A DNA stretch of 37,377 nt from a virus, in IMG/VR virus record IMGVR_UViG_3300032105_000006. The stretch is one strand, 5' to 3'. Positions 493 through 36,112 of the stretch are shown one piece after another (positions within the stretch are counted from its first letter, which is position 1; the number at the start of each line of letters is the position of its first letter). The position numbers and the translations under genes were made by a program. Below the pieces are notes generated by a model. That model saw only the letters and a program-made list of their open reading frames with translations. It did not search any database and was not told where the DNA came from.

Positions 493-536
493 ATCCTAGC
501 CTATGGATTGATTGGGTTCTATAGGTGTTTACCCTA
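493..536 (-). promoter_or_regulatory. Conserved box TAGGGTAAACACCTA (522-536, minus orientation) plus -10-like TAGGAT (493-498)
   Basis: One of about 9 copies of the box. Box centre to -10 is 31 bp. A half-copy GTGTTTATCCTA lies at 487-498. Confidence 0.5.
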
Positions 537-1167: not shown

Positions 1168-1930
1168 GTCCGTCCTTTTCGAGCAACCGTTTCACCACTG
1201 CGCGGTTTGAGGCTTCCAATGCCTCCTGCTTGTTCAGCTTCGGCGGCGCACCTTTTGGCGGGAGCACCTTTGCCAGCCATTCCAGAGGCTGTAGCGGCTT
1301 AGCACGGATGCACTCTCGCAATGCGTCTACAAGCTCACCGTCACCGTGAGATTTCCGCAGGCCACCCAAGAACGTCCTAGCCTGCTTTTCAGGCGTCCCA
1401 GCGTTGGTAAGCAATGGGACCCCGTACCCGAAGATTATTTCGTCTGGAGTGAGCGGCGCTTTTGCGCCCGTACCTTTAGGTACGGAATTAAATGAAGTAG
1501 AAGATGAAGAAGAAGATGAAGGGGTTGGTTTTTGCTTATCCTTGAGGTTAACCTTGAGGTTAACCTTATCTGGAGACTTCAATGCAGGATTGCCGCCTAA
1601 CTTTCCTCCGGCAGCACGCATGTTTCTTAGGTTTTCGTCTCTTATCATGCGCCTTGACAAAATAGTTCCATCGGCATCAACGTCATAGACGCCTGCTGAT
1701 CGAAGTTCTTCTAGCCAACCTTCAACATCAGGCAAGGTTGATCCGACCATAGCCGCAAGGTTAGCAGGAAGGATAACCTTGTTACCAACCTTTAGATGCC
1801 CGTATGGATTGCCCTCATGCATAAAACATATCATGTCTATCCAAAGGCCTCGCGCACCAATAGAGCAGGTTCTAAGGGCCGTATCCCTTAGCCAGTCACT
1901 TGGGTAGAACTGAAATGAAGGTCGCTTCAT
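1154..1930 (-). CDS. DUF1376 (YdaU-like) replication-associated protein
   Basis: N-terminal RPSFQFYPSDWL signature. Start set at ATG 1930 (ATGA overlap with the HNH stop). The track ORF extends to 1948. Confidence 0.8.
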   Translation of the reverse strand: MKRPSFQFYPSDWLRDTALRTCSIGARGLWIDMICFMHEGNPYGHLKVGNKVILPANLAAMVGSTLPDVEGWLEELRSAGVYDVDADGTILSRRMIRDENLRNMRAAGGKLGGNPALKSPDKVNLKVNLKDKQKPTPSSSSSSSTSFNSVPKGTGAKAPLTPDEIIFGYGVPLLTNAGTPEKQARTFLGGLRKSHGDGELVDALRECIRAKPLQPLEWLAKVLPPKGAPPKLNKQEALEASNRAVVKRLLEKDGHGIQ

Positions 1931-2457
1931 TTTCCTGCCGCCTTGCACTTATTAATGCAAATCCCGCAGAAGTATCTAAACTGGCGCGAAAGACTCCAGT
2001 AGTTTCTTGCGCTTGCAATCTCTGCCGCATTCATTACTTCATCAAGTCCTAGCTTGTCAATGAAGTTTCTAATGCTTTGAAAATCGGCCTTGTTAAAGAC
2101 GTTTGCGTCTTGATTAAAAATATGGACTACATTCCAAGCAGCATCTTCCAGCCTGCTTCTTTTTGCCATGATTGCTTTTTGATAGCCAACGATCTGGGCT
2201 TCTGACTCAGCAATCTTTTTTGCCTTTTCTTCTAGGCTCTCAGGAATTGCCGTAAGAAGTCTTGCGCCTTTGCCAAAGTTGCATTCTTCACACGATGTGA
2301 CTAAGTTGTCAATATCGTTTGTTCCACCTTCAGCAACAGGATGTATATGATCTACATGCAAAAGAACGCCGGGTGGATGCGATCCGCAATATTGACACTC
2401 AAAACTATCGCGCTTGAATACTTCAAAGCGAAGTTTTTTAGAGATTGATTTTCTCAT
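1927..2457 (-). CDS. HNH endonuclease
   Basis: CQYCG...HVDHIHPVAEGGTNDIDNLVTSCEECNFGKG motif. AT-richer than its neighbours. Confidence 0.85.
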   Translation of the reverse strand: MRKSISKKLRFEVFKRDSFECQYCGSHPPGVLLHVDHIHPVAEGGTNDIDNLVTSCEECNFGKGARLLTAIPESLEEKAKKIAESEAQIVGYQKAIMAKRSRLEDAAWNVVHIFNQDANVFNKADFQSIRNFIDKLGLDEVMNAAEIASARNYWSLSRQFRYFCGICINKCKAAGK

Positions 2458-2575: not shown

Positions 2576-2604
2576 ATTATAGCGATGCTATTTACGTGCG
2601 TCAA
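2576..2604 (-). promoter_or_regulatory. Near-consensus sigma70-type promoter TTGACG-17 nt-TATAAT
   Basis: -35 at 2604-2599, -10 at 2581-2576, spacer exactly 17 nt, read on the minus strand. Confidence 0.6.
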
Positions 2605-2694: not shown

Positions 2695-3117
2695 TTATTC
2701 TGTTTCATCTTCCCACCATTTAGGCTTTATTTGTTGAACGTCGCTGTAGCAATTTTTAGTTATTGTGTAACGTACAACGTTGTAATGGCATCCAAGCCGT
2801 TCAGAAATTTTTTTCATTGGCCATCCATGTGCCCACAGGAATCTGATTTGACCAGCTCTTAACTTTCGATCTGACAGCATTGATTCGTAGTCTGGCAGAC
2901 CTTCTTTTGGTGGTTTACGTACAAATTTTTCTGGCTCTATTTTTACAAACAATCTAGGAATTACAACCTCTCCATTTTTGTGCTGGCGATAGCGAAGAGC
3001 CTTACCTTCAATATTTTGAACCTTTGGTGGGTGGTCGCTTTTTTGGAAATATAGTTTTTTATTGTAGGGACGTTTACCGTAGTCAATAGGTTCCAACTCA
3101 AACTTTTTGTAGGACAT
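2695..3117 (-). CDS. HTH-containing protein (140 aa), AT-rich
   Basis: ORF track. C-terminal KKISERLGCHYNVVRYTI helix-turn-helix-like segment. Confidence 0.7.
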   Translation of the reverse strand: MSYKKFELEPIDYGKRPYNKKLYFQKSDHPPKVQNIEGKALRYRQHKNGEVVIPRLFVKIEPEKFVRKPPKEGLPDYESMLSDRKLRAGQIRFLWAHGWPMKKISERLGCHYNVVRYTITKNCYSDVQQIKPKWWEDETE

Positions 3118-3118: not shown

Positions 3119-3349
3119 TCACTTAACCCACTTTGTTTGCGGCTTGTAAGCCTTGGTGACGCGGTAGACGTTGATGCCGTTCAGACCTTTTTGATAACTC
3201 TTGTAGCTGGTAAGCTCTTCGCCTTCTTGCAGGCTTTCACGAATGCGTTTCCAAGGGCAGGTACTGATACCTGTCTGTAGAAGCTCCATAGTGGTCATAG
3301 GGCGCTGCTTGAGCAGTGCGATTAGCTTGCGGCCTTGGGTCTTGTTCAT
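3119..3349 (-). CDS. Small winged-helix/HTH protein (76 aa)
   Basis: ORF track. The pattern LIALLKQRPMTTMELLQTGISTCPWKRIRESL resembles HTH_39-type domains. Confidence 0.7.
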   Translation of the reverse strand: MNKTQGRKLIALLKQRPMTTMELLQTGISTCPWKRIRESLQEGEELTSYKSYQKGLNGINVYRVTKAYKPQTKWVK

Positions 3350-4953: not shown

Positions 4954-5058
4954 AGAATACACCCAGCCTATAGCCTTTACTATAGGGATAAACCCTTAGG
5001 TCTGTTACATGTAGGTAGGGTTTTCACCTATGGTTTTTTTTGCTGGGCATGGCATGAT
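4954..5058. promoter_or_regulatory. Divergent early control region with two box variants and -10-like elements on both strands
   Basis: TAGGGATAAACCCTTA at 4983-4998 and TAGGGTTTTCACCTA at 5016-5030. CATGAT at 5053-5058 lies 30 bp from the second box centre. TATTCT (minus) at 4954-4959. Confidence 0.5.
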
Positions 5059-5081: not shown

Positions 5082-5393
5082 ATGAACGACCCACGCGGCC
5101 CCAACGACTTCCCGCCCACGGACGCAGAGCTTGAGCGCATCTACGGCACGCCTGTAACAGAATACGAGCGTATGGACGCTATCCGTCGCCAGTCTGAGGC
5201 ATTTGATAAGGATGACCTCATGGATGTGCTTTATGAGCATGGAGAGCGCCTGCTGGCTGATATTGCAAACGGTTTCGCATGGAGCGTTGGCGATCGCATC
5301 ATAGAGGCCCGCAAAGAAACCATCGCCCGCCGTGCCAGCATGGAGCTTTACGGTAAGCCTGATGTAATCAAGGCATCGGAGATTCAATCATGA
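5082..5393 (+). CDS. Hypothetical protein (103 aa)
   Basis: ORF track. Strong AGGAGG RBS. Confidence 0.8.
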   Translation: MNDPRGPNDFPPTDAELERIYGTPVTEYERMDAIRRQSEAFDKDDLMDVLYEHGERLLADIANGFAWSVGDRIIEARKETIARRASMELYGKPDVIKASEIQS

Positions 5394-6055
5394 AAACCAT
5401 CATCGCATTTATCATCGGACTTTTTAGTCTGTCGGCTAATGCTCTTGACATTGAAATCGGCGCAGGCCAGACCCGCTGGAGCAAGACGCCGAACACACAA
5501 TACTGGCAGCAAGAATTCCCCAATAGTTGGGACTTGCTGAGTGCAGCCTACTATGTCGGGGTCACTGACAAAATCGGCCGCTATCGTCTGCGAGCTGGCT
5601 GGCTTGACCTGGGCAACGTCAGCAACCGCGCCTATGCAACCTCAGACGTAAATTACAAGGAAGGCGTGGGCTGCATCAACCCGTGTCCCATCCTTGGAAT
5701 TTGGGACGTGGAGGGCCGCACCAAGGGCGTGGAGTTCTCGGTCGCCCCCGAGTGGCAAGCCGGAGAATTCACACTGTTCGTCAAGGGCGGCGTGCTGATC
5801 CATCGCCCTCGCGTGGATGTGAAGATTTATCGATACCCCGGCGACACTCAGCGCACGCATTTCAACTACCCCGAGCAGTTGAACTATGCGCCCACGATTG
5901 GTTTCGGCGCGACCTACGGCAAGTGGAATGCAAGCCTGTCGTTCTACAAGATCGACGCGACCACGGACACGCAGGAAGAAGACAAGCGCATCCCGCCGAA
6001 TTGGGGTTCTAAGTTGACGGATACGACCGTGCTGATGGTTACGCGGAGGTTTTGA
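5390..6055 (+). CDS. Secreted outer-membrane beta-barrel-like protein (221 aa)
   Basis: Signal peptide MKTIIAFIIGLFSLSANA. Alternating hydrophobic strands. C-terminal ...VTRRF ends in Phe. Confidence 0.7.
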   Translation: MKTIIAFIIGLFSLSANALDIEIGAGQTRWSKTPNTQYWQQEFPNSWDLLSAAYYVGVTDKIGRYRLRAGWLDLGNVSNRAYATSDVNYKEGVGCINPCPILGIWDVEGRTKGVEFSVAPEWQAGEFTLFVKGGVLIHRPRVDVKIYRYPGDTQRTHFNYPEQLNYAPTIGFGATYGKWNASLSFYKIDATTDTQEEDKRIPPNWGSKLTDTTVLMVTRRF

Positions 6056-6056
6056 T

Positions 6057-7292
6057 ATGAACACGAACCACGACGCGCTGCGTGAGGCGCTGAACGAGAG
6101 CTGGTTTCTCGCTTGTAAAGAAATCATTGATCGCTGCGTTGCGCCGGATATGTACGCCAATGCCCGGCAGCTTCTAGACCTCGCAATGCGCAAATCCCTC
6201 TCCCAGCCAATGCCAGAGGCAGCGGCGCCCGGATACGCGCTGATGTGCCGAGAGTGCGAGAGGCTGGACGGGCATCATTCTGTTGGGTGCTCACAGCGTT
6301 CTGAATCACCAGCCGCGCCCGATGGATGCTGCGAGGGCAAAGTGTCGGCACTGTGCCCCGGGTGCCCGCGTGCTGCCGCACCAGATGGGGCGAAGCCTGA
6401 GCGTGAAATTGAGCAGCTAATCCGAGAGCGAGACCAACGCGATGAAATCATTGATCGGCTGTGCGATGCAGTGCTTGGCAGTGAGCGCCCAGAGTGGAGC
6501 AGCGCCTACGGATTTGATGACGCCGTGGCGGATGTTGAGGGGCGAATAGACGAGCTTCTACAGCCATCAGTGAGTAAGGCTTGGGATCGTTTCGAACGGG
6601 CAAGTACCGCCCAGCCTCAAGCGCAGAGCGCAACGCTTCGGCAATGCGCGAACCCTGATAGTGCTGGGCCAGAACAGAAAAGCAGATTTACTTTTTACGC
6701 CAAAGATCATCCGGTCTGGAGGGTTCGATATTACGGGTCGCTCGATTTGAAGGGCTACAACATCTATGCATTCCGCAATCCGGATGCCACGCATGGCGAA
6801 AGAATTGCCAATCTCGGTGAAAACAGCGATGCGGCTGAAATGATCTGCGCGGCACACAATGAATTAGCCGCTGCATTCATTGAGGAGAAGGAAACTGCGC
6901 AACAGCTAAACCACGCCCTGCGTGAAGCCACCGAAGCGCCCACGTTCATGGGTGAGCCTGTTGCCGTCCAGCCCCCGCACCCCCAGCCTCAAGCGCAGGG
7001 AGAGCCTACAGTTGGATGGGTTCACGGGTGGGAGCTTGAGCGCGCCAACGAGTCAAAGCGTTGGGCAATGAAAGAATGCCGAGAACTCCGCGAAGCCATC
7101 GCCAAGAGAGACGCAGCACTGGTGGCGTGCGTGGAGGCGCTGGAAAATATGAAGAAGGTTTCTGCTGCGAAGAGCGCAATGGCATACCTGAGAAAAGGCA
7201 TCGGCACAGCTACGGAGGATGTTGCGTGGCTGCGTATTGATCCCGCCATCACACAGGCCAATGAAGTGCTGGGCAGAAAGGAAGGTAAGTGA
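6057..7292 (+). CDS. Mosaic Ea22-like early protein (411 aa). Its C-terminal module is paralogous to 10152..10556.
   Basis: ORF track. Shares REAIAKRDAALVACVEALE and QANEVLG segments and a 57-nt near-identical DNA block with the paralogue. Confidence 0.8.
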   Translation: MNTNHDALREALNESWFLACKEIIDRCVAPDMYANARQLLDLAMRKSLSQPMPEAAAPGYALMCRECERLDGHHSVGCSQRSESPAAPDGCCEGKVSALCPGCPRAAAPDGAKPEREIEQLIRERDQRDEIIDRLCDAVLGSERPEWSSAYGFDDAVADVEGRIDELLQPSVSKAWDRFERASTAQPQAQSATLRQCANPDSAGPEQKSRFTFYAKDHPVWRVRYYGSLDLKGYNIYAFRNPDATHGERIANLGENSDAAEMICAAHNELAAAFIEEKETAQQLNHALREATEAPTFMGEPVAVQPPHPQPQAQGEPTVGWVHGWELERANESKRWAMKECRELREAIAKRDAALVACVEALENMKKVSAAKSAMAYLRKGIGTATEDVAWLRIDPAITQANEVLGRKEGK

Positions 7293-7293: not shown

Positions 7294-7452
7294 ATGGACC
7301 AAGTAGTCCAAGTAGAGCTTTGGATGGTTGCAATCTTATGCGCCATGTGGATGGCCGGAGGATTGGTCAATTGGATCATGCTCGGCCTGTTGACGCGCAT
7401 GGCGTCAGAGCTTCGCAAGATTATGGAAGCCTGGGGGAGAGAACAATCATGA
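7294..7452 (+). CDS. Small membrane protein (52 aa)
   Basis: ATG 7294 lies 1 nt after the upstream stop and has an AAGGAAGG RBS. Hydrophobic WMVAILCAMWMAGGLVNWIMLGLL. ATGA overlap with the next gene. Confidence 0.55.
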   Translation: MDQVVQVELWMVAILCAMWMAGGLVNWIMLGLLTRMASELRKIMEAWGREQS

Positions 7453-7952
7453 CCACCCAACAAGATGAGCGTGCTGAGTTGACCAAGGAAGAAAAGGCGC
7501 TGGGCGCATTCCTATCTGCCATGCATGACTGCAAACTCGACGGCGGAAAGATGCGCGAGGCCATGCTCAAGGTGCTTGGGCTGGAAGCTGATGCCAAGGG
7601 CGGGGAGGCGGTGGCTGAGTGGCACCTTGACTCCGAAGCAGCACAGTTTCTCGCAGAGCTAATAACAGCAGACGAGGACGGGCCGACTGAAATTTCTCTG
7701 CGCGTTGGTCAAATCAAGGACGACGATGGCACCGTTAAGCATGGGCTGCTCGTTTATGAAACGGAGTACCCAGAAGAAGGCGCAAGCCTGCTGGTCGAGT
7801 GCCCGCCGCTCTACAACCGCCCCCAGCAATCAGCACAGGTGCCGCTGACGCAGGAGCAAATACGAGAAATGGCATGGCCTGCTTTTTATCGCGATGACCA
7901 ACGGTTTATTCCATTCGCCCGCGCCATTGAGAAAGCACACGGCATAGGGTAA
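7449..7952 (+). CDS. Hypothetical protein (167 aa)
   Basis: Start moved to ATG 7449 (GGGGGAGAG RBS, ATGA coupling). The track ORF starts at 7320. The TAA stop lies inside the conserved box. Confidence 0.75.
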   Translation: MTTQQDERAELTKEEKALGAFLSAMHDCKLDGGKMREAMLKVLGLEADAKGGEAVAEWHLDSEAAQFLAELITADEDGPTEISLRVGQIKDDDGTVKHGLLVYETEYPEEGASLLVECPPLYNRPQQSAQVPLTQEQIREMAWPAFYRDDQRFIPFARAIEKAHGIG

Positions 7953-7986
7953 ACACCTATTGCATGAGTGTTTTTAGTCTGTAGTA
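7944..7986 (+). promoter_or_regulatory. Conserved box TAGGGTAAACACCTA (7944-7958) plus TTGCAT -35-like and TAGTAT -10-like (7981-7986)
   Basis: Box centre to -10 is 30 bp. The predicted start near 7993 precedes the AGGAG RBS at 7999-8003. Confidence 0.5.
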
Positions 7987-8007
7987 TTGGTATTTTTAGG
8001 AGATGTT

Positions 8008-8312: not shown

Positions 8313-8444
8313 ATGGATCAAGCTTACTATGAGCAAGTGGCTAGACAAGAGGAATGGGAAGAAGAACAAGAGGCAATGCGCTGGAAGATGGTGCAAGAGC
8401 GAGTAGAGAAAGATAGGCAGTATCTTGTGAGGAATAAGAAATGA
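8313..8444 (+). CDS. Small acidic protein (43 aa), N-terminus paralogous to 8145..8303
   Basis: Own translation MDQAYYEQVARQEE... AGGAAA RBS. ATGA overlap with the Sak gene. Confidence 0.5.
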   Translation: MDQAYYEQVARQEEWEEEQEAMRWKMVQERVEKDRQYLVRNKK

Positions 8445-9019
8445 GCGATTTGCTGAAAATCAATGTAAACCAGCACACCGAAAAAAAGGGAAATCTAACC
8501 TATTTGTCATGGGCCTGGGCCTGGGCAGAGGTTCTCAAGATTGACCCGGATGCGGAATGGTTCCCGCACGAATTCGGACCCGAAGGCTCTAAGCTGCCCT
8601 ACATGATGCTGCACGACACGACCGCGCTGGTTAAGGTGACGGTAACTATTCGTGGTAAGTCCAAGCTGGCGATTCTGCCTGTCATGGATCATCGCAACAA
8701 GGCTATCCAAGGCCCGGATGCGTTCCAAGTTAACACAGCCACGATGCGATGTCTTGCCAAGGCTATTTCCATGCATGGGCTTGGCTTGTATATCTATGCA
8801 GGGGAAGACCTACCGCCTATTGATGAAGAGGCCCTGCGCGATTTCTGCGGGAAGCTGGTCGCCTTGCACGAAGAAGGCAATAACTTGGAAGCCGTGCGTA
8901 TGTGGTACGCAGAACGTCCCGACAACAGCAATGAGGCTGTCGAATTCATGTGGGGGCAACTACGTGACTATTCCGAACTCCGTTCCGCAATTAAAGCAAA
9001 CAAACCTGAAAGCAAATAA
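8441..9019 (+). CDS. Rad52-like single-strand annealing protein (Sak/DUF1071 family)
   Basis: YLSWAWAW and MHGLGLYIYAGEDLP signatures. Confidence 0.8.
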   Translation: MSDLLKINVNQHTEKKGNLTYLSWAWAWAEVLKIDPDAEWFPHEFGPEGSKLPYMMLHDTTALVKVTVTIRGKSKLAILPVMDHRNKAIQGPDAFQVNTATMRCLAKAISMHGLGLYIYAGEDLPPIDEEALRDFCGKLVALHEEGNNLEAVRMWYAERPDNSNEAVEFMWGQLRDYSELRSAIKANKPESK

Positions 9020-9296: not shown

Positions 9297-9539
9297 ATGA
9301 AATACATCAATCACAGCACTGAAGGCTTCATTGTATGGGGCCATCTAGGCCATGCAGAGCTAGCCCATAAAGACGTAGCTGATTTCGTTCTATCCAAGCT
9401 CGGCGGGTTTATTCATTCCGCTGGGTTTGTGATGATGTTCGATGATGGGCCGTACTGTGAAGGTGAGTCTATGTCTCTAGGGATTCATTCTGAGCCAGGG
9501 GATACAGAGGCTCTTAAAAAGCAATGGGGGGTTGAGTGA
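9297..9539 (+). CDS. Hypothetical protein (80 aa)
   Basis: ATG 9297 lies 1 nt after the upstream stop. The track ORF starts at 9225 inside the previous gene. Confidence 0.65.
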   Translation: MKYINHSTEGFIVWGHLGHAELAHKDVADFVLSKLGGFIHSAGFVMMFDDGPYCEGESMSLGIHSEPGDTEALKKQWGVE

Positions 9540-9748
9540 TGAAATTAACAGGCGACCGAAATCAGTGCCAAGGCTGCAAGGAGTATTTCAACTCTACATT
9601 CGCCTTTGACAAACATCGAACTGGTGAATACGGAAAAGATCGTAGATGCCTAAGCACAAGCGAAATGCTAGAGAAAGGCATGGACAAAAACAACGCTGGA
9701 TTCTGGATTAGCGCAAAAATGCCTGATTCTGCAATAAACCAAGGGTAA
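9539..9748 (+). CDS. Small zinc-finger protein (69 aa)
   Basis: CQGC...H...C pattern. TGATG coupling. The TAA stop lies inside the conserved box. Confidence 0.7.
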   Translation: MKLTGDRNQCQGCKEYFNSTFAFDKHRTGEYGKDRRCLSTSEMLEKGMDKNNAGFWISAKMPDSAINQG

Positions 9749-9783
9749 ACACCTATTCCAATCCCATCCCAAATAACTACCAT
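9741..9783 (+). promoter_or_regulatory. Conserved box AAGGGTAAACACCTA (9741-9755) plus -10-like TACCAT (9778-9783)
   Basis: Box centre to -10 is 30 bp. The predicted start coincides with ATG 9790, so the mRNA may be leaderless. Confidence 0.45.
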
Positions 9784-9789
9784 GTAGAC

Positions 9790-10155
9790 ATGATTTTTCA
9801 TCGCCCAGGCCCATCCATCATCTGCATGGCAATTTTCATCCTGCTGATCTGGTTTGGGTTCTTTAAGCTGGTGTTCTGGCACTACCCTAGGTTCTATCTC
9901 ACAGGCAACAGGAAGTCTTATCGGTACATCTACCACTATGCAAAGTCACTCGATCAATCTGCTTGTGCTGGGGCTTTTGGTGGGAATAGTGATGAGACGA
10001 TCAGTAACAGGGCGGGACGGATTTTCAAGGAAAAAGAGTGGCATTCTCCATGGTGGTGTATCGTGACAAAAAAGCTCACAGACCGATGGGAAGAAAACCA
10101 CATCATGAACAGTATCGAGCCACTCAGGCCAGACCCTACGGAGGAATTGAAATGA
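9790..10155 (+). CDS. Membrane-anchored hypothetical protein (121 aa)
   Basis: ORF track. N-terminal TM segment. ATGA overlap with the next gene. Confidence 0.6.
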   Translation: MIFHRPGPSIICMAIFILLIWFGFFKLVFWHYPRFYLTGNRKSYRYIYHYAKSLDQSACAGAFGGNSDETISNRAGRIFKEKEWHSPWWCIVTKKLTDRWEENHIMNSIEPLRPDPTEELK

Positions 10156-12150: not shown

Positions 12151-12184
12151 TCAGTAACTCCAGCAAATTGTGTATAATGGAGAT

Positions 12185-12802
12185 ATGAATAAAGAGCTAT
12201 TGCAATCACTTCTTGATTATGACCCGTTAACTGGCATTTTCAAATGGAAAGTCAGCAAGCCTCCACGAGGGAAAGCTGGGGAAATTGCTGGATACAACAA
12301 TGGCTCAGGATATATCAAGATTTCTATTGCTGGCAAAAGGCATTACGCTCACAGGCTTGCTTTCATTTTTATGGGATTTGATGAGCCTGAGATTGTTGAC
12401 CACATAAACGGCGTTAGACATGACAATCGGTTTGAAAACCTTAGGTCAGTATCTTCTCAAGTTCAAAACCTAAACAACACAAATTACGGCAAAGGAATTA
12501 GAAAACGATACGGCAAATGGTATGCAAGAATTGGAGGCTCCCACATTGGAGTTTTTGATAAAGAGGATGAAGCCATAAATGCATACAACAAGAGAAAACT
12601 AGAGCTTGCAGAATTGCCAGAAATACAAATTGAAAAAGTAGATTCTCCGAATACAAAAAGATGGAGCTATAACAAACTTCTACTCAATGGCAAATCAATT
12701 TCTGAGTGGTCAAGAAACTCTGGAATTCCGCAGCAAACCTTGTATTACAGAGTTCACAAAATGGGCTTGGATATCCAGTCTGCTATAAAACTAGGGATAT
12801 GA
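12185..12802 (+). CDS. HNH homing endonuclease with AP2-like and C-terminal HTH domains
   Basis: HRLAFIFMG...VDHINGVRHDNRFENLR and GKWYARIGGSHIGVFDKEDEAINAY. GGAGAT RBS before ATG 12185 (track start GTG 12170). Opposite strand to the lysis genes. Confidence 0.85.
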   Translation: MNKELLQSLLDYDPLTGIFKWKVSKPPRGKAGEIAGYNNGSGYIKISIAGKRHYAHRLAFIFMGFDEPEIVDHINGVRHDNRFENLRSVSSQVQNLNNTNYGKGIRKRYGKWYARIGGSHIGVFDKEDEAINAYNKRKLELAELPEIQIEKVDSPNTKRWSYNKLLLNGKSISEWSRNSGIPQQTLYYRVHKMGLDIQSAIKLGI

Positions 12803-14910: not shown

Positions 14911-16263
14911 TTATCGAAGTTCATACCATGTGGCAATTCCGCTGGCCGGAGCTGAAGAATACGACTGAAACGCAGGAACCGTAAACGAATAAAGGTTTGT
15001 GGGAGCAGAAAAAATAGTAGTACCGTTCACAGTAGCCGAAGAATCAGAGCCTCCAGTAACCGGCTCAATAATCACGGAAATCGGCTTACCTGTAGTGTTG
15101 TAGTAAGTTGTCCCGCTGGAGCGAGAGCTAGTCACGTCCTGCCAAGTTTGGCCATAGCCCAGAGAAGACATTGCAGTGAGTGCATTACCTCCAGCGCCTT
15201 GAATCAGGCTGGGGGCAGTTGCCCAAGTTCCTGCTGTTGCCTGAGTGCTTCGGATAATACCAATCACCCGATAGGCCACGTTAGTGCGTGCAGTCGTTGA
15301 GTAGATCACCGTTGCACTGTCAGCACCACCAGCACCACCCTCTGCGGTTGTGCTGATAAGTCCAGTTTCTGACAGATCAACACCACCAGACATGTTGACG
15401 GCTGCAAGTTCAATCGTGCCAGCATTGTTAATCGCAAGGACTACAATCTGGCTTTGAATTCCGTTTACCGTGCCAAGCGTAGAACCGCTGGAAATAACAA
15501 GGTTAGCGGGAGTTCCAGAAACAGTAGTAACAGTCCCACTACCAAGAGTTGTAGAGCGGAAATCAAGCGTTAGGGCGCTTGCGCTGATGGTCAGTGCGTT
15601 AGACCCTACGGATGCGCTGATGGACTGAATAACGCCCCTGACCGCCCTATCTGCGTAAGCAGTAGTAGCAATTTTCGTGCTGTTGTCGTAAAGAGCTTGA
15701 GTAGTGGTTGTTACGCCAGCATCAAGAGTGGCAACAGTTTGTGCAGCAAGATTCGTCAGTTGAAAACGAGTGCCGTCATAGACAATCTGTACCAAAGCAC
15801 CGCTAGGAATATCACCGGCAGCTAGTGCTGTAGTTCCAAGTTTTGTGATGCTTTTAGCACCAAGGCCGTTGATGTTGATTGTTACAGCGCCAGTATTCGC
15901 ACCGGCAGAAACGAACTCAAATCGCTGCCCTGCGGCGTAAGCCACAAGAGCAGGGGTAAGGCTACCGGTGATCGTGTCTACACCGGAAATTGATCCGATA
16001 TAGGTGTAAGCGGAATCCTGAACCTGACCAAGATTGATGGAGTCACTACGGGCAGATCCATTCCCTACACTGGTGAACTTGAAGTTCCCCATGGGGATGT
16101 TTGCCGTAGCAGCAGCGGTACCATCTCTTTTAAGGTTTGCTGCGTCAGAAACTTGAATGGCATCAAACTCATTGTCAATTTCGGTCCCCTTGACAATCTT
16201 GCTGGGGTTACCAGAAGGCAATGCGTCTTTGGCGGCAAAGTCGGTAGTCTTGGTGTAGCTCAT
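14911..16263 (-). CDS. Tail fibre protein
   Basis: N-terminal ...NGLGAKSITKLGTTALAAGDIPSGALVQIVYDGTRFQL, typical of phage fibre anchors. Ser/Thr/Gly-rich distal part. Confidence 0.8.
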   Translation of the reverse strand: MSYTKTTDFAAKDALPSGNPSKIVKGTEIDNEFDAIQVSDAANLKRDGTAAATANIPMGNFKFTSVGNGSARSDSINLGQVQDSAYTYIGSISGVDTITGSLTPALVAYAAGQRFEFVSAGANTGAVTININGLGAKSITKLGTTALAAGDIPSGALVQIVYDGTRFQLTNLAAQTVATLDAGVTTTTQALYDNSTKIATTAYADRAVRGVIQSISASVGSNALTISASALTLDFRSTTLGSGTVTTVSGTPANLVISSGSTLGTVNGIQSQIVVLAINNAGTIELAAVNMSGGVDLSETGLISTTAEGGAGGADSATVIYSTTARTNVAYRVIGIIRSTQATAGTWATAPSLIQGAGGNALTAMSSLGYGQTWQDVTSSRSSGTTYYNTTGKPISVIIEPVTGGSDSSATVNGTTIFSAPTNLYSFTVPAFQSYSSAPASGIATWYELR

Positions 16264-16305
16264 GGTTTATCTTTCACTTGATAAATCAAGTTAGTGAGTC
16301 CTTAC

Positions 16306-17850
16306 TTAAATTCTACCATCCTTGGTTGTTACTTCCAGCTTTTGGATAGAGACGTTTTGATTGTTGATTGTTGCTTCCAAGCCAAACTGCCAGACCCGGC
16401 CCGATCCACCTCCATTGACTGATACTTCTTCCACAAAAATACCAGTGGTGTATTCCCATGTCGTGTTGTATTCAGCTACGTTGTATTCAGCTGCATTCGG
16501 GCTTCCATCAATATCATTCGTTTCTGAGCGATAGAAGTTTTCGTAGTCCTTGGCCCATTTGAAAATCAAGGTCTGAGCAGCGCCACCAATCATTGTGTAC
16601 CTGATCTTTTTAAGGATAGAGGTCTGAACCTGATTGCCAAAATCAATCCATGTCGTGAAGTAAGTCATCCGGTAGGTTTTTGTGTCATCCAAAAACCCTG
16701 AATACTCACCGATATAACCAGATTTTCCGATGTAAAACTTTCGGTTACTGGTTTCAAAGAAGGCACAAGCAAAGAAGTCAGGCCAAGCCGTCACCCGTGC
16801 AGAGCCATCGGGTAGAGTTCCTCTGGTATCAAAACAATAGGTAATGTTACCAATCGGAAGTCTCAAAAGATAAAACTGGTTGACTTGGCTGTAACCAGAT
16901 TTAATGTCCTCGGTATCTTCAAGACTCAAATACTGCATGAGGTCATCGCGGATGTTCTTGGAAAGATCGCGCATTGGAGCGGACTTTTCCTGAATGGTGC
17001 GAAGCATACTTCTAACACCCGTATCGGAAAGGAACAGAACATCAGTTCCGATGTTTTGAACCGAGTCCCGAGAGATGCATCCAATCCCGACAATAGAGTC
17101 TTCAAGGAATATATTTGCTGGGTCCGTAGCGTTGGCAAAGACAAGAATCTGCCTCTTGCCCATGATGAACAGACGGTTGTTGTGAGCCGCCAAGGCAACA
17201 ATCTGATCGCCACCAAGCGGCCAAATCTTAACAATATCCAAAGTCCCAGAGGTCCCGCCAGTCCATACATGAGGCGCTTGGAGGTCGGAGAAATAGACAA
17301 TCTGGCGCTCAGTTATAGTGTCTGCCGCCCAGATACGTCCAAACGCGGAAATCGCCTCATTGGCGTCAGGAACAGTACCTGCTGAGCCTGATTTTTCGCT
17401 CAGTCTTCGATATGTGGTCGTTGAAACAGCGGGGTCGTAAATCAAGGCATCGTAGTTCCTCTGCCAAAAAATACCAACCCCGTTGAGTTGGCAGAACTTC
17501 CAGTTGTTATCAAGAATGGTAGGAGCTACGCCACCACCACCATAAGTCAATTCAACCAGAGAGCCAGAAGACAGTTTGAACAGCTTGTTATTGCCAGCGC
17601 AAAGAACCGTTCCAGTCCCATCGTTTTCAATCACTTCTCCAATTGCACAGACTTGCGCAGTTGATAGTTCCGTACTGGCGGTATTCGCTTTGACCCATCC
17701 CTTTCGCCCGGCAACTCGTCCAAACTTGTCAATGACGCAGTTATTCGCCTCCAGAGCAAAATTAGGGGAAAGGTCTACCGGGCTTTCAGCGGTGTTGAGT
17801 CCGTAAAAACCGGGCGCTTGAATAGAAAAAGGAGACAGCGAACGAGCCAT
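16306..17850 (-). CDS. Tail hub/nozzle-type virion protein
   Basis: Size and position. Start set at ATG 17850 (TAATG coupling). The track uses TTG 17856. Confidence 0.6.
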   Translation of the reverse strand: MARSLSPFSIQAPGFYGLNTAESPVDLSPNFALEANNCVIDKFGRVAGRKGWVKANTASTELSTAQVCAIGEVIENDGTGTVLCAGNNKLFKLSSGSLVELTYGGGGVAPTILDNNWKFCQLNGVGIFWQRNYDALIYDPAVSTTTYRRLSEKSGSAGTVPDANEAISAFGRIWAADTITERQIVYFSDLQAPHVWTGGTSGTLDIVKIWPLGGDQIVALAAHNNRLFIMGKRQILVFANATDPANIFLEDSIVGIGCISRDSVQNIGTDVLFLSDTGVRSMLRTIQEKSAPMRDLSKNIRDDLMQYLSLEDTEDIKSGYSQVNQFYLLRLPIGNITYCFDTRGTLPDGSARVTAWPDFFACAFFETSNRKFYIGKSGYIGEYSGFLDDTKTYRMTYFTTWIDFGNQVQTSILKKIRYTMIGGAAQTLIFKWAKDYENFYRSETNDIDGSPNAAEYNVAEYNTTWEYTTGIFVEEVSVNGGGSGRVWQFGLEATINNQNVSIQKLEVTTKDGRI

Positions 17851-18497
17851 TAACAAGCCACCCAGATAGATTGGTCGCCAGAACGAGTACTCTCCATGCT
17901 GATCAAGTCTGCCATCATGGAGCGGAACAATTGATAAGCCTCGTTACTAGTAATACCGCCATCTTCTCCTCTCTCAACAAGCGCACGAGCATAAGCGCCC
18001 TGGACAACCAAATCATTGTCCATAAGAATGATGTCACCGTCTGCTGACAGGTCTGCTTGTGGGATGAACAGGTTGAACTTGATCGTATAGATTCCGTCAG
18101 GGATAGGATAAAGACGGACTTTTGTATCCGTACCATCCGACCCGCTGAAAGCATAGAAAGAAGGCCCGCCAGTCTGGGACGTTGAGAGTTGTGTCAGTCG
18201 ATCAAGATGATCAAGCGTGACAGCCTTAAGAATCGCATCATTCGTGTCATCAATCACACTGGATACACGGAACTTCCTACCAGAGCCAACTACCGTGTAT
18301 TCCTCTGTAGACGCGGAGGTCGTCACGTTGATCGTGTCGTACAGTGCTTCCCAGGTCCATGCGTTTTCAACCTGACGCTTGGAGTCGTTGACAAATTTAC
18401 CAATCAGCTTTGAATAAGCGTTGGCCGTGACAGTATTGACCTCATCCTCACGAAGTCTTACAAGCACATCGTTTACGCATTCAAGGTATGTAGCCAT
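17850..18497 (-). CDS. Head-tail adaptor-type virion protein
   Basis: Size and position upstream of the hub gene. Confidence 0.55.
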   Translation of the reverse strand: MATYLECVNDVLVRLREDEVNTVTANAYSKLIGKFVNDSKRQVENAWTWEALYDTINVTTSASTEEYTVVGSGRKFRVSSVIDDTNDAILKAVTLDHLDRLTQLSTSQTGGPSFYAFSGSDGTDTKVRLYPIPDGIYTIKFNLFIPQADLSADGDIILMDNDLVVQGAYARALVERGEDGGITSNEAYQLFRSMMADLISMESTRSGDQSIWVAC

Positions 18498-20149: not shown

Positions 20150-21297
20150 TTGACAATATTCCCTTGAGCATCAAACTTGATGCGTTTGCGTTGAGTAGGC
20201 TGAGTTTCGTTAGGATTAATAGGTGCGCCACCTTCCTGAACAGCAGCCTCATTAACGCTTTTTAACCAATTGTTGTAATGCCCAAGAATCTTGTTCAAAT
20301 TAGACTTGAGTTGGCCTGGACTTTGCTTCTGTTTCAGGCTTGCAAGCGTAGATTGCAGCATGTCCAGTTCCCGGATAGCAACTTGACCCAATGCTCCACC
20401 AGTAGGGGAGGCGTCTCGCATGGCTTGAAGCTCATCAAAACCGATGTTTGCTTGAATCGTATCAATCGTGGACTCAAGGTTTGCAGCCGGAGTACCGCCG
20501 ATGGCAGCCGTTGTCTGCCCAACAACACCTGCACTCAAAAGACCAACTTGAGTAATTGCTTCATTGATCTTGGAAATAACCAATTGAGCTTTTGTGCGCG
20601 CACGTTCACGCGCAGCAGCTTGCTTTGAAGTGTTGTCTTTAGGGCCGCCAGGAATAGGCTCAAGATCACCATTTGCAGTGTAGCGATAACCAGTCGGTGG
20701 TTTCGGAATTCCTGTAGTTCCTACTTTTTCAGCAGCAGCGTTTTCTTTGCGAATCAAGGCATTGATGCGACTATCAATGATGTTGTATTCGTTGCTTCCA
20801 ACAGGATAACGATTCCGGTCAAGAATAAAGCGCTGAATATCGCTTGCATACTTTGCTGGGTCTTCTGCCTCATTGGGTTTCAACGCTTTTTGAGCCTGCG
20901 CCAATGCATTACGTTCTTGAGCTTGATTTTCAGCAATTTGAGATTGACGCAGACGCATGACTTGAGCGGCCTGACTGAGCCGATAAGCCATATCAGTATT
21001 CCCAGCTTGATTAAATGCCTGTGCTGCTTGTAGCATTCCTTCAGGCGTACTGGTGTCAAATCGGCTCATAATGCTTTGCTGCTGTTGAGCCATTGCCTCT
21101 TGAGGGTTTTGCAGGCCAATCAACCCAGCACCTGCACGCGCCAAGTCTCCACCGGCTTGGTATAGTTGCATGTTGGCACGTTGGAAAGGATTCAGTTGTG
21201 CAAATTGCAGCGCAGCAGCATCCGAATCCGCCATTTCCTGACGGCGGATAGCTTGAGGGGTCAACCCAAACAGACTTTGAACGATGCTTTCAGCCAT
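20146..21297 (-). CDS. Internal virion protein candidate (383 aa), Gln/Ala-rich
   Basis: ORF track, position, ATGA coupling. Confidence 0.6.
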   Translation of the reverse strand: MAESIVQSLFGLTPQAIRRQEMADSDAAALQFAQLNPFQRANMQLYQAGGDLARAGAGLIGLQNPQEAMAQQQQSIMSRFDTSTPEGMLQAAQAFNQAGNTDMAYRLSQAAQVMRLRQSQIAENQAQERNALAQAQKALKPNEAEDPAKYASDIQRFILDRNRYPVGSNEYNIIDSRINALIRKENAAAEKVGTTGIPKPPTGYRYTANGDLEPIPGGPKDNTSKQAAARERARTKAQLVISKINEAITQVGLLSAGVVGQTTAAIGGTPAANLESTIDTIQANIGFDELQAMRDASPTGGALGQVAIRELDMLQSTLASLKQKQSPGQLKSNLNKILGHYNNWLKSVNEAAVQEGGAPINPNETQPTQRKRIKFDAQGNIVK

Positions 21298-26965: not shown

Positions 26966-27054
26966 TGGTCTTTGATTAAAACAATGTCATAACCACCGGA
27001 AAGGTCAAGATGCTCTGAATGAAGTTCGTTATAAAACTGTTGCAAGGCTTTCAT
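26962..27054 (-). CDS. Micro-ORF (30 aa) bridging the portal and the next gene
   Basis: Own translation [34 protein letters not shown] overlaps at both ends. Confidence 0.45.
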   Translation of the reverse strand: MKALQQFYNELHSEHLDLSGGYDIVLIKDQ

Positions 27055-32429: not shown

Positions 32430-32675
32430 CCTGTTTGTTTCTGGAATGCATTCAAACCCCTAGCGCGTGGGGTGTTTTCTTGGCATGGCTTTTGTGCTTA
32501 TGCCGTGGGCTATCTTGTTTATCCCTTGCTGCCTGCTGATCTGGTGCATCGCTGTGCACAATCATTCAGGTGGCCTAGATGCTTATACGCTGGCCTGTCG
32601 CAGGGTTTATCCGATGGGTCTAGCCTAACCGCTTCGGGGACCGGGTCTCAGTCCCAGGATTTGATGCCCTCATTC

Positions 32676-32690
32676 TAGGTGTTTACCCTA
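32676..32690 (-). promoter_or_regulatory. Conserved box TAGGGTAAACACCTA without an obvious -10 at the usual spacing
   Basis: Exact core copy, minus orientation, about 260 bp upstream of the late promoter candidate. Confidence 0.4.
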
Positions 32691-32715
32691 TGCTGGTCAA
32701 ACGATCAGTGCTTTC

Positions 32716-32759
32716 TAAGGGTTTTCCCTAATGGCATTCTGTCAGTTAATGCCGATAAT
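32716..32759 (+). promoter_or_regulatory. Box variant TAAGGGTTTTCCCTAA (32716-32731) plus -10 GATAAT (32754-32759) for the 32799 operon
   Basis: Box centre to -10 is about 30.5 bp. ATGGCA -35-like with a 17-nt spacer. Confidence 0.45.
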
Positions 32760-33931: not shown

Positions 33932-33936
33932 TTATT

Positions 33937-34150: not shown

Positions 34151-34192
34151 ATTATCGGCACCTAAACACAAAATCTATAGGTGTTTACCCTA
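34151..34192 (-). promoter_or_regulatory. Conserved box TAGGGTAAACACCTA (34178-34192) plus -10 GATAAT (34151-34156) upstream of the tRNA cluster
   Basis: Box centre to -10 is 29-30 bp. Predicts a ~55-nt leader before tRNA-Gly. Confidence 0.5.
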
Positions 34193-34200
34193 GTGTTTAT

Positions 34201-34395: not shown

Positions 34396-34404
34396 ATCGT
34401 TCCT

Positions 34405-36069: not shown

Positions 36070-36112
36070 ATCATCGCCTCTCTATGGAATAAAACAATAG
36101 GTGCTTACCCTA
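36070..36112 (-). promoter_or_regulatory. Conserved box TAGGGTAAGCACCTA (36098-36112) plus -10-like GATGAT (36070-36075)
   Basis: Box centre to -10 is 30 bp. Confidence 0.5.

Follow-up and report, generated by a model that had tools for sequence, protein, structure and literature searches.

A conserved 15-base box in helical phase with sigma-70-type promoters of unrelated phages is probably a binding site for a host transcription factor

The virus record IMGVR_UViG_3300032105_000006, a stretch of 37,377 nucleotides that is referred to below as the window, carries a 15-base sequence, TAGGGTAAACACCTA, that recurs between its genes. What protein reads this box, and with what effect on transcription? 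Since the window bears a 55-bp terminal direct repeat, it corresponds to a closed genome. A pattern search of this 37-kb freshwater phage genome with TAGGGTAAACACCTA, allowing up to three mismatches, gave eight matches as compared to 0.41 expected. The expectation was the mean of dinucleotide-preserving shuffles, and none of 100 shuffles gave eight matches. All eight matches were intergenic or overlapped a stop codon, and each copy of the box ran in the same direction as its gene block. The recurrent, co-oriented box described by the first-pass annotation was thus borne out. Its presence before nearly every operon was overstated: a 19-kb structural block has no box, and neither has the best consensus promoter of the early arm, TTGACG-17-TATAAT (2604..2576). 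The coordinates given earlier hold, apart from one copy that had been placed one base off (7944-7958 for 7945-7959). The four exact copies, the two copies with one mismatch and the three variants are as follows, together with the promoter-like elements beside them:

522..536, minus strand: exact canonical box; its TAA (531-529) ends a helicase-loader-like gene (529-1167).
521..493, minus strand: predicted promoter, -35 TAGAAC (521-516), 17-nt spacer, -10 TAGGAT (498-493), score 6.8, above the 99th percentile of background; AAGGAG lies 3′ of it, then ATG at 454.
4983..4998, plus strand: variant box TAGGGATAAACCCTTA, more palindromic than the canonical box.
5008..4979, minus strand: promoter-like element, GTAACA (5008-5003), 18-nt spacer, TATAGT (4984-4979).
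5016..5030, plus strand: variant box TAGGGTTTTCACCTA, 5′ of the first rightward gene (5082-5393); a weak TGGTTT-16-CATGAT goes with it, its -10 at 5053-5058.
7945..7959, plus strand: exact canonical box; its TAA (7950-7952) ends the open reading frame 7320-7952.
7960..7987, plus strand: predicted promoter, -35 TTGCAT (7960-7965), 16-nt spacer, -10 TAGTAT (7982-7987), score 8.6; AGGAG lies 3′ of it and the next gene starts with GTG at 8008.
9741..9755, plus strand: box with one mismatch, AAGGGTAAACACCTA; its TAA (9746-9748) ends an open reading frame with a zinc-binding domain (9536-9748).
9756..9783, plus strand: predicted promoter, -35 TTCCAA (9756-9761), 16-nt spacer, -10 TACCAT (9778-9783), score 6.3.
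32676..32690, minus strand: exact canonical box.
32700..32672, minus strand: predicted promoter, -35 TTGACC (32700-32695), 17-nt spacer, -10 TAGAAT (32677-32672), score 14.1, the strongest sigma-70-like promoter of the region.
32716..32730, minus strand: variant box TAGGGAAAACCCTTA, 15 nt 5′ of the -35 of the preceding promoter, a distance that does not share the phase of the canonical spacings.
34178..34192, minus strand: exact canonical box, 5′ of a tRNA-Leu/tRNA-Arg pair (34013-33856); predicted promoter TAGATT (34177-34172), 15-nt spacer, GATAAT (34156-34151).
36098..36112, minus strand: box with one mismatch, TAGGGTAAGCACCTA; predicted promoter, -35 TTGTTT (36097-36092), 16-nt spacer, -10 GATGAT (36075-36070), score 4.4, above the 95th percentile of background.

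Of the six canonical copies, five are followed directly by a weak -35/-10 pair, which puts the centre of the box near -43.5. The pair at offset 0 exceeded the 95th to 99th percentile of background at four of the six, with poor -35 hexamers. The promoter at the 34178 copy is a weak prediction because of its short spacer, and the mRNA made from the 9741 promoter may be leaderless since ATG 9790 lies only about 7 nt past the -10. A -10-like hexamer 29-32 bp from the box centre had been claimed for eight of nine copies. We verified one at 29-31 nt for six of them only (522, 7945, 9741, 36098, 34178 and 5016), and no such hexamer was found downstream of the 32676 copy. As regards the class-II activator position proposed earlier, the location of the box as an upstream site adjoining the promoter stood, while the centre at -41.5 did not, the box ending where the -35 begins (centre about -43.5). 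Strict class II had to be given up as well: because the box lies one, two or three helical turns further upstream in other phages, it behaves as an upstream site that depends on the face of the helix. The box itself does not fit an UP element (NNAAAWWTWTTTTNNNAAANNN, A/T-rich, -38 to -59), its arms being G+C-rich. An A-rich stretch often found 3′ of the box (GAAAATAATTT...AAA) resembles an UP element by eye; in the window, where the box abuts the -35, there is no such stretch.

Two copies of the box in the window lie within the core promoter itself, an arrangement that would suit repression and that had been overlooked. The canonical box at 32676-32690 occupies the spacer and the first two -10 bases of the 32700..32672 promoter, about 630 nt 5′ of a small-terminase-like gene (31585-32043). 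The TAGGGATAAACCCTTA variant is contained in the spacer of the 5008..4979 element, with which the leftward early arm (4930 down to 137) begins. The three TAA stops within boxes (529-531, minus strand; 7950-7952 and 9746-9748, plus strand) were confirmed. They look incidental: the box has TAG and TAA in two frames.

In agreement with the first-pass annotation, no RNA polymerase gene was found in this phage. Among the window proteins scanned against PHROGs and Pfam there was no polymerase family, and the largest open reading frame (663 aa) encodes the portal. The box recalls promoters of the K11/SP6 type (TAGGG..., and TAGGTG on the other strand), but a promoter for a T7-like single-subunit polymerase was rejected in view of the closed genome, in which no polymerase gene was found. 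A split polymerase of the N4 type, encoded by the pair of 221- and 411-aa open reading frames at 5390-7292, was discarded too, these being outer-membrane-like and low-complexity proteins instead. The other box-bearing loci yielded no polymerase either, and the scans of window proteins brought up neither an integrase nor a repressor gene. A role at the RNA level was set aside: a stem of 4 bp closing a loop of 7 nt is too weak, the predicted starts are 3′ of the box, and Rfam returned two tRNAs only. By eye, readings as a sigma-54, sigma-28 or ECF-type promoter failed for want of a -10/-12 partner at a fixed short distance, and GCCGATAA, which follows the 34178 copy, has the wrong spacing for an alternative sigma element. 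Searching INPHARED gave no close relative at the DNA level and only three distant portal matches.

The exact 15-mer recurs in unrelated uncultured phages, with box-bearing contigs numbering several hundred. At least 119 IMG/VR contigs have it, and these differ in their portals, terminases and primases. The exact 24-mer extension TAGGGTAAACACCTAGAAAATAAT occurred in 52 contigs and a 20-mer consisting of the box followed by TTGAC in 58, with a chance expectation of about zero for both. Only 14% of the boxes were inside crude open reading frames as compared to 77% of random positions. Sigma-70-type promoters with a score of at least 8 were mostly downstream of the box on the same strand (53, whereas 7 lay upstream of it and the opposite strand had 18). 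With a score of at least 10, 24 were downstream on the same strand as compared to 2-5 in each of the three other arrangements. The distances from the end of the box to the -35 clustered at 0-1, 9-12, 20-23, 29-32, 42 and 52 nt. Over 39 non-redundant promoters this corresponds to helical phasing with a period of 10.5 bp (Rayleigh p ~1e-10). The number of independent observations behind this statistic may be inflated, since boxes with GAAAATAAT could in part belong to a single sequence family spread by recombination. The same phasing was repeated in the 24-mer set, with eight promoters at 11 nt, eleven at 20-22 nt and none at 13-19 nt. The commonest position of the box is about one turn 5′ of the abutting one, with the centre at about -54. 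Many of the box-linked promoters in other phages are near consensus and have UP-like DNA. Therefore, the need for an activator is not obvious there, and the factor could modulate or repress. Several box loci show a 5′ hairpin after the promoter, then TTTTAAGGAG.

The distribution of the box among phages is patchy. Portal relatives at 43-70% identity had no box within up to 10 kb of flanking sequence and about ten other relatives had one, showing that the box is not inherited with the phage lineage. Among cultured phages, Limnohabitans phage DC31 carries an exact box together with GAAAATAATTTG, and its host, Limnohabitans, is the sole known host of a box-bearing phage. The box is missing from Limnohabitans phage DC33 and from Curvibacter phage P26059A, so that phages of this host group can do without it. 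The phage tRNAs of the window read UUA and AGA; as these codons are rare in a host of 60% G+C, the tRNA content would fit the host assignment. Neither the 15-mer nor its 13-mer cores had a match in the literature, and the published description of a Limnohabitans phage mentions no promoter or motif.

Host chromosomes were then considered. In Limnohabitans sp. T6-20 and T6-5 and in several metagenome-assembled genomes (MAGs), a site of the form TAGGG[T/A]A[A/T]N[T/C]AC[C/T]TA occupies one fixed place in the boxR-boxC intergenic region while its flanks vary. With respect to boxC, it stands 21 nt 5′ of the -35 of a good promoter, in phase. The divergent glpR/ABC-transporter region (glycerol regulon) of several Comamonadaceae MAGs conserves [T/C]AGGGTAAA[C/A]ACCTA, with no convincing promoter predicted downstream. 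These host sites are at orthologous positions and slightly diverged, in chromosomes with 58-62% G+C. Conservation in hosts was judged from the two operons examined and from six to seven Comamonadaceae/Burkholderiales matches. An extended scan of bacterial genomes gave 17 matches, which is a chance number, the informative part being their taxonomic skew and the two loci. No box adjoining a promoter was found in 107 betaproteobacterial sequences upstream of 16S genes, each 300 nt or longer (metagenomic, including Comamonadaceae-like contigs, with a taxonomy judged from the V1 sequence alone). Two matches with up to three mismatches were present in this set, both in reverse orientation and neither adjoining a promoter. 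By inspection, the motif fitted none of the CRP, FNR, NtcA, IHF, Fis, PhoB and LexA consensus sequences.

Overall, these data suggest that the box is probably bound by a sequence-specific transcription factor, and that this factor comes from the putative host, a Limnohabitans-type member of the Comamonadaceae, rather than from the phage. A host factor is favoured because unrelated phages share the site, many relatives lack it, no window protein is common to the box loci and two host operons have sites. The first-pass annotation had proposed a dimeric factor of phage or host origin acting with host RNA polymerase. The use of host polymerase agrees with the promoter-like hexamers adjoining the box, and the choice that was left between phage and host now leans to the host. 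Such a factor would bind TAGG-N7-CCTA, the conserved asymmetric core and the frequent A-rich neighbour GAAAATAAT giving direction. Placed on the upstream face of the promoter, it would work together with the sigma-70 RNA polymerase of the host. Most likely, it would hold the alpha C-terminal domain on the adjoining A-rich DNA, or touch sigma region 4 where the box abuts the -35. In this phage, judging from the geometry, it would serve at least five promoters with the box against a poor -35 (centre near -43.5), so that both early arms and the tRNA pair would depend on it. At the two spacer copies the same factor would repress, namely the leftward early promoter and the strong promoter before the packaging genes.

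An alternative is a regulator encoded by the phages, with the box, the A-rich stretch and the promoter forming a mobile cassette that travels with or without the regulator gene. Identity letter for letter over 15-24 nt across unrelated phages is easier to obtain by transfer than by convergence. The window offers candidates, a winged-helix-like protein of 76 aa (3119-3349) and an HTH_23-like C-terminus in 2695-3117, and a family of 119-aa proteins is found near 22 of the 119 box loci as compared to 0 of 79 portal relatives. However, tblastn of the window open reading frames against the 119 box loci revealed no widely shared DNA binder, the HTH candidates being present in 0-1 other loci; gene absence is weak evidence here because the loci span about 5 kb on each side of the box. 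The most shared window protein (119 aa, 34703-35062) models as a UvsY-like helical hairpin and not as a DNA-reading fold (pLDDT 86; matches only to T4 UvsY-like helical hairpins, TM 0.65, E 0.2). With the conserved orthologous sites before boxC and the glp-region ABC operon left unexplained, a phage regulator appears unlikely. Host architectural proteins are often used by phages, and an abundant one (IHF-, Fis- or Lrp-like) might bind the box and bend the upstream DNA around RNA polymerase. The face-of-helix dependence, strict over up to five turns, and the UP-like A-rich DNA adjoining the box speak for it, as does the resemblance to the E. coli Lrp consensus, YAGHAWATTWTDCTR, in the length of 15 bp, the odd-centred dyad and the AG-N9-CT ends. 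Nonetheless, we hold this reading to be improbable. By inspection the box fits neither the E. coli IHF consensus (WATCAANNNNTTR) nor the Fis consensus (G-N13-C), its lack before the 107 rRNA promoters argues against a role of the Fis/rrn-P1 type, and the usual tolerance of such proteins for sequence variation is far above that seen in the box.

Two further readings give the box little or no part in activation. It would be mainly a repressor or roadblock site, stoperator-like, that silences or insulates phage transcription units, and the asymmetric, multi-copy, intergenic and co-oriented sites, some of them over stop codons, resemble such a system, as do the two window copies within promoter spacers. 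We consider this very unlikely given that no integrase or repressor was recognised among the scanned window proteins, that the site is common to unrelated phages and host operons, and that it is found at phased distances 5′ of the -35 and not at arbitrary spots in transcribed DNA. Alternatively, the box would have no regulatory role and be a shared recombination linker or module boundary, in line with identical short sequences at the gene boundaries of mosaic phages and with the three stop codons within boxes. These two roles, put forward in the first-pass annotation, found no direct support, although the 15-24-mers common to unrelated phages would make such recombination possible. Neither helical phasing with a fixed orientation to promoters nor conservation in host catabolic promoters is expected of a linker, which makes this reading highly implausible.

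The host-factor reading can be pushed further, to a version that we think quite doubtful. In this version a single regulator of catabolic operons in Limnohabitans-type Comamonadaceae would be the shared transcription entry for hundreds of unrelated freshwater phages and, in this phage, a developmental clock. From about -43.5, the factor would turn on early and middle promoters, at least five of them, and it would occupy the spacer of the strong promoter before the packaging genes. Late expression would start once replicated genomes, with nine sites each, titrate the factor away. In addition, the box would serve as a tag by which uncultured viral contigs could be placed in the Limnohabitans-type host group.

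Limnohabitans and related bacteria rank among the most active in lakes and, to our knowledge, their phages have hardly been studied. Were the promoters of many unrelated phages gated by one host factor, the success of infection would depend on the physiological state that controls this factor. Judging from the two host operons identified, that state may be carbon-source status. The 15-24-base box could mark metagenomic viral contigs for the Limnohabitans-type host group. The finding also points to an undescribed regulon of the Comamonadaceae and its regulator, for which the phage consensus site would be a ready high-affinity bait, and to a compact phased promoter design (site, UP-like stretch and core) for genetic tools in these bacteria.

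Among known systems, the class I and class II sites of CRP and FNR in E. coli likewise keep to a single face of the helix, being located near -43 or whole turns further upstream, with room for the alpha C-terminal domain before the -35 and a weak -35 where the site abuts it. However, CRP-family sites are even-centred dyads (5-6-5 or 5-4-5) that work in either orientation, whereas the box is an odd-centred TAGG-N7-CCTA in fixed orientation, and CRP is not known to activate from a centre at about -54. NAC, a LysR-type protein of Klebsiella, binds a 15-bp site, ATA-N9-TAT, near -64 before sigma-70 catabolic promoters and needs the right face and one orientation. The box is similar in its 15 bp, in its fixed orientation and in its restriction to one helical face. 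The sequence differs, the box giving A-N11-T and LysR boxes T-N11-A, and nothing here points to a LysR protein. At rrnB P1, Fis sites, an UP element and the core promoter follow one another; the box, the A-rich stretch (GAAAATAATTT as compared to AGAAAATTATTTT) and the near-consensus -35/-10 come in the same order, but the box does not fit the Fis consensus and is missing before the 107 rRNA promoters. The stoperators of cluster A mycobacteriophages are many asymmetric 13-15-bp sites in short intergenic gaps, co-oriented and in some cases over stop codons, all of which recalls the box. They are bound by the phage's own immunity repressor, are lineage specific and have no tie to promoters, whereas the box is phased to promoters and common to unrelated phages and host operons. 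PeSL elements of T4-type phages are mobile early-promoter cassettes with a stem-loop, spread within a lineage. They too are short conserved modules at many gene boundaries, and a hairpin follows in several box loci. However, PeSL are defined by promoter plus stem-loop, whereas the box is conserved 5′ of diverse promoters and across phage lineages. Finally, marine cyanomyoviruses carry 1-16 sites per genome for the host regulator NtcA, with a mean of 8.9 (PMC3037559). NtcA and Pho-box sites are, like the box, sites of a host global regulator scattered through the intergenic regions of many phage genomes, and they are read as the phage tapping the host nutritional response for its own genes. In that case NtcA and the motif that it recognises, GTA-N8-TAC, had already been described, whereas the box is a new motif with a putative factor. 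Compared with the NtcA sites, the box belongs to mutually unrelated phages of a freshwater Comamonadaceae host group and stands in helical phase with the core promoter.

The 15-base box TAGGGTAAACACCTA has eight matches with at most three mismatches in the window, as compared to 0.41 expected, and none of 100 shuffles reached eight. The enrichment reported in the first-pass annotation is thereby borne out. Every copy is intergenic or overlaps a stop codon and points in the direction of local gene transcription, as had been claimed, and TAA stop codons do lie inside three copies. The coordinates stand, except that 7944-7958 was wrong by one base. DNA downstream of the boxes was scored with a simple sigma-70 weight matrix, an E. 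coli-style approximation for which random places in the window gave a 95th percentile of 3.0 and a 99th percentile of 6.2.

Box copies in the window, with predicted promoters (-35, spacer length, -10)
522-536, minus, exact copy; TAGAAC-17-TAGGAT, score 6.8
7945-7959, plus, exact copy; TTGCAT-16-TAGTAT, score 8.6
32676-32690, minus, exact copy
34178-34192, minus, exact copy; TAGATT-15-GATAAT
9741, plus, one mismatch; TTCCAA-16-TACCAT, score 6.3
36098, minus, one mismatch; TTGTTT-16-GATGAT, score 4.4
5016, plus, looser variant; TGGTTT-16-CATGAT, weak
32716, minus, looser variant
4983, plus, looser variant

At boxes 522, 7945, 9741 and 36098, the best -35/-10 pair starts at the first base past the box, and the -35 hexamers abutting window boxes are poor. 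A -10 hexamer some 30 nt away from the centre of the box, predicted for most copies, was recovered at six sites and not at the others proposed. Because the best pairs abut the box, the proposed centre near -41.5 is refined to near -43.5. Two copies have a different placement, which had been missed. At 32676, the exact copy occupies the spacer and the beginning of the -10 of TTGACC-17-TAGAAT (32700..32672, score 14.1), the best promoter of its region, and the spacer of a leftward promoter, GTAACA-18-TATAGT (5008..4979), is taken up by the palindromic variant 4983. The claim that nearly every operon carries a box was too broad: in the early arm, the promoter closest to consensus, TTGACG-17-TATAAT (2576-2604, minus strand, 11 of 12), situated in the gap 2457-2695 before an HNH gene and the replication genes, is boxless.

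Several other features were seen around these promoters. At 9778-9792 (plus strand), the ATG of ORF 9790-10155 lies about 7 nt past the predicted -10 TACCAT without a Shine-Dalgarno sequence, which suggests a leaderless mRNA; the product is hydrophobic and possibly a holin-like protein. Between the strong promoter 32700-32672 and a small-terminase-like gene, about 630 nt (32044-32671) contain a G+C-rich hairpin (32456-32473), with no minus-strand ORF of at least 50 aa and no Rfam match; this gap may serve as a long leader or encode an unrecognised RNA. A strong hairpin of 11 pairs, 8 of them G-C, lies at 34411-34436 (minus strand) within an apparently spurious ORF (34197-34502) and is followed by CTTTTTAGGA. 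The order of a hairpin and then TTTTAAGGAG also occurs after many box-linked promoters of other phage contigs (e.g. L011, L018, L066), and is reminiscent of an element that stabilises the 5′ UTR, or of a terminator combined with a ribosome-binding site. Another motif of higher symmetry, TAGGG-N4/5-CCCTA (as in TAGGGTTTTCCCTA, TAGGGAAATCCCCTA and TAGGGTAAACCCTTA), often lies less than about 100 nt from the canonical box, as in contigs L009, L013, L049, L063, L065 and L075 and, in the window, at 4983-4998 and 32716-32730. The same putative factor may use this motif as a weaker or alternative site.

In IMG/VR, the exact 15-mer was found in at least 119 contigs, a count that is, by a rough estimate, about the chance expectation for a collection of this size. 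Nevertheless, these matches are not random, since only 14% of the boxes fall inside crude ORFs versus 77% of random positions, many loci have two or three copies or near-copies, and the downstream flanks are structured. Longer words settle the matter: TAGGGTAAACACCTAGAAAATAAT (24 nt) occurs in 52 contigs and TAGGGTAAACACCTATTGAC (20 nt) in 58, with essentially none expected. Only 12 and 10 of these contigs, respectively, are shared with the first 119 listed, so the box-bearing viral contigs must be several hundred in all. Among the matches listed, the contigs are mutually unrelated by their large proteins, which include D5-type primases, a T4-type terminase, a cytosine methylase, collagen/YadA-like fibres and an SU10-type portal; an RNA polymerase was not found among them.

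We also examined 80 loci retrieved through similarity to the window's portal protein (43-70% identity, flanks up to 10 kb). Apart from one 99%-identical copy of the window phage, they contained neither the box (at most two mismatches) nor an equivalent repeated word. Some ten further phages whose small terminase, large terminase and portal are homologous do bear the box, usually directed away from the packaging genes. This patchy distribution shows that the box tracks something other than phage ancestry. As a side observation, a family of G+C-rich terminase-bearing contigs (L005, L030, L088, L103, L107, L206) carries up to seven 17-bp palindromes, TGCACCA-N3-TGGTGCA, of NtrC-site shape, adjoining the box and TTGACGGAT (e.g. 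L088:806-1113, L103:3280-3587). These arrays may be iterons or operators; some contigs of the family also contain sigma-54-like TGGCAC-N5-TTGC matches.

The position of the box relative to promoters was then analysed across contigs. In non-redundant contexts, 24 promoters scoring at least 10 were found downstream on the same strand, versus 2-5 for any of the three remaining arrangements. Counted from the final base of the box to where the -35 begins, distances were quantised at 0-1, 9-12, 20-23 and 29-32 nt, with single cases at 35, 42, 48 and 52. The Rayleigh statistic (n = 39 promoters) peaked at a period of 10.5 bp with p ~1e-10, though the GAAAATAAT class may in part be a single sequence family that recombines, which would leave fewer independent data points. 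In the 24-mer set, independent by selection, the -35 starts at 11 nt in 8 cases and at 20-22 nt in 11, and never at 13-19 nt. Directly 5′ of the box the information content falls to nothing; on the 3′ side, G(A/T)AAATAAT is very frequent at any -35 distance. When the interval is 20-22 nt, the whole stretch is UP-element-like, as judged against the E. coli consensus and rrnB P1. As read from these sequences, the geometry is that of a putative protein on one helix face upstream of RNA polymerase, with room beside it for the alpha C-terminal domain, and the asymmetry of the box has a predicted functional direction.

The window is a podovirus-like phage genome of 37,377 bases, 48% G+C, with two divergent early arms starting near 5000. 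Its first 55 bases are identical to its last 55, within a GCCGTA-type repeat. This identity makes the contig a closed circle, with a complete inventory of genes.

Main features of the phage genome
529-1948, replisome organiser and helicase-loader-like pair
8441-9019, Sak-like annealing protein
structural and packaging block, minus, with the next four entries
14911 to 22277, minus, tail and internal proteins
24515-25558, minus, major head protein
27051-29042, minus, portal (663 aa, largest ORF)
29212-30477, minus, large terminase
33856-34013, tRNA-Leu(UAA) and tRNA-Arg(UCU)
1927-2457 (minus), 12170-12802 (plus), 30468-31067 (minus), 35047-35562 (minus), 36123-36407 (minus), HNH/homing-endonuclease genes or fragments (at least five)

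One of the HNH/homing-endonuclease genes or fragments lies directly upstream of the large terminase gene. The 55-bp exact direct repeat (within 1-136 and 37162-37377) is part of a long GCCGTA/GCCGTC/GCCGTT repeat that would encode, on the minus strand, a Gly/Tyr-rich repeat protein across the circle junction; its repeat number may be mis-assembled. Comparison with 50,697 deposited phages gave no near relative.

No RNA polymerase or sigma factor gene was found in the closed genome, in agreement with the earlier claim of no phage polymerase. A split N4-type polymerase, considered for the adjacent ORFs of 221 and 411 aa (5390-7292), was rejected, these being a signal-peptide beta-rich protein and a low-complexity protein without family match. 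To see whether the factor might be encoded by the phage, all window ORFs were compared with the 119 box loci, which cover about 5 kb on either side of a box, and no shared DNA-binding candidate emerged. A winged-helix-like 76-aa protein (3119-3349) and an HTH_23-like protein (2695-3117) are each present in one or no other locus. The most widely shared window protein (34703-35062, minus strand, 119 aa) occurs close to 22 of the 119 boxes and is absent from all 79 portal relatives. Its family is small and without annotation, with about 217 environmental members. AlphaFold models it with confidence (pLDDT 86) as a long helical hairpin, for which T4 UvsY chains were the only structural neighbours in the PDB (TM ~0.65, E ~0.2). 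It appears to be a recombination accessory that marks a shared gene pool, not the box reader, and may be a recombination mediator partner of the Sak-like protein 8441-9019.

On the host side, Limnohabitans phage DC31 is the only cultured phage with the box, an exact copy plus GAAAATAATTTG in a 0.9-kb unannotated gap. A search of 185,579 bacterial species genomes with the box and five semi-specified bases gave 17 matches, a chance number; 6 or 7 are in Comamonadaceae/Burkholderiales assemblies, and five of these have 58-62% G+C. One of them, the 'Rhodoferax' contig L204, is an element of viral type, which was binned as a Rhodoferax MAG and is at the same time the IMG/VR record IMGVR_UViG_3300014204_000355 (L251, 39,858 bp). 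The contig codes for a ParB-H-NS fusion and for an integrase that ends on a stop codon inside the box. Its probable nature is that of an integrative or plasmid-like element from Comamonadaceae.

Two of the host loci were studied in more detail. In the first, the site lies between a BoxR-type regulator gene (HTH and shikimate-kinase-like domain) and a boxC-like enoyl-CoA hydratase gene. Comparison of the orthologous region in Limnohabitans sp. T6-20, T6-5 and several metagenomic Limnohabitans showed the site kept at the same place in all, with minor differences (TAGGGAAAATACCTA, TAGGGTAAATACTTA, TAGGGTAATTACTTA, TAGGGTAAACACCTA), while adjoining bases drift. It is exactly 21 nt upstream of a good promoter, TTG(T/A)GT-17-TAAA(A/C)T (scores 9.4-11.2), that is, in the third phase class. 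Between site and promoter are TGCA-N6-TGCA repeats, of the known BzdR/BoxR operator type. In the second locus, a GlpR-type repressor gene and a MalK/UgpC-type ABC transporter operon diverge, and the site is found between them, as [T/C]AGGGTAAA[C/A]ACCTA in four assemblies and as a decayed copy in one; Rhodoferax assemblies with a different gene order there had no site. Promoter prediction with the sigma-70 matrix gave nothing confident at this site. Since the site is kept at orthologous positions before two unrelated chromosomal catabolic operons, it probably belongs to a host regulon (two operons). These operons have their own local repressors, which use other operators, so the box reader is neither BoxR nor GlpR. 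The first-pass annotation had allowed a phage or a host factor; the two host loci favour the host, and no DNA-binding candidate of the window is shared by the 119 box loci.

As to the nature of this factor, the succession of site, UP-like stretch and consensus core recalls rrnB P1, and betaproteobacterial 16S 5′ ends were therefore examined. The box was not upstream of rRNA promoters in 107 metagenomic upstream regions of at least 300 nt, including types with a Comamonadaceae-like V1 region, which argues against a Fis/rRNA-type site. Compared by eye, the box matches none of the E. coli IHF, Fis, CRP, FNR, NtcA, PhoB and LexA consensus sequences, and its odd-centred dyad TAGG-N7-CCTA (variants TAGGG-N5-CCCTA) speaks against the CRP/FNR family. 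As leads, the dyad is compatible with Lrp/AsnC-, LysR-, IclR- or TetR-type dimers, and its ends, AG-N9-CT, are those of the E. coli Lrp consensus. A T7-type polymerase promoter fails as an explanation, no polymerase having been found in the window, as does a stoperator, since no phage repressor was recognised and the box is promoter-phased and not lineage specific. We consider it rather likely, from these sequence comparisons, that the box is a host-regulator site co-opted by phages.

Host RNA polymerase with the main sigma factor would then transcribe the whole phage genome. At least five window promoters with weak -35 elements would rely on the host factor, a putative Limnohabitans-type Comamonadaceae regulator, bound directly upstream with its centre near -43.5. 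Box 522 would serve gene 137-454 and the subsequent minus-strand genes across the circle junction, box 7945 the Sak module and box 9741 the possibly leaderless membrane-protein gene; 36098 and 34178, the latter ahead of the tRNAs, would be further factor-dependent promoters, and variant 5016 would play the same role for the first rightward gene. At the spacer copies (4983-4998 and 32676-32690), the same factor would shut the leftward early promoter and the strong promoter before the packaging genes. Geometry and weak -35 elements suggest that the factor activates; alternatively, it might modulate already strong promoters, as it would in many other phages. The UUA and AGA tRNAs would fit a 48% G+C phage in a host of about 60% G+C.

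The positional rules of the box resemble class I/II activation in E. coli, and also those of the LysR-type NAC protein, whose 15-bp sites are orientation- and phase-dependent. No paper containing the box sequence was found in the literature searched, and the motif, its host group and its breadth across unrelated phages appear undescribed. The nearest precedent is found in marine cyanomyoviruses, where NtcA and Pho-box sites, i.e. sites of a host nutritional regulator, are spread over phage genomes (PMC3037559).
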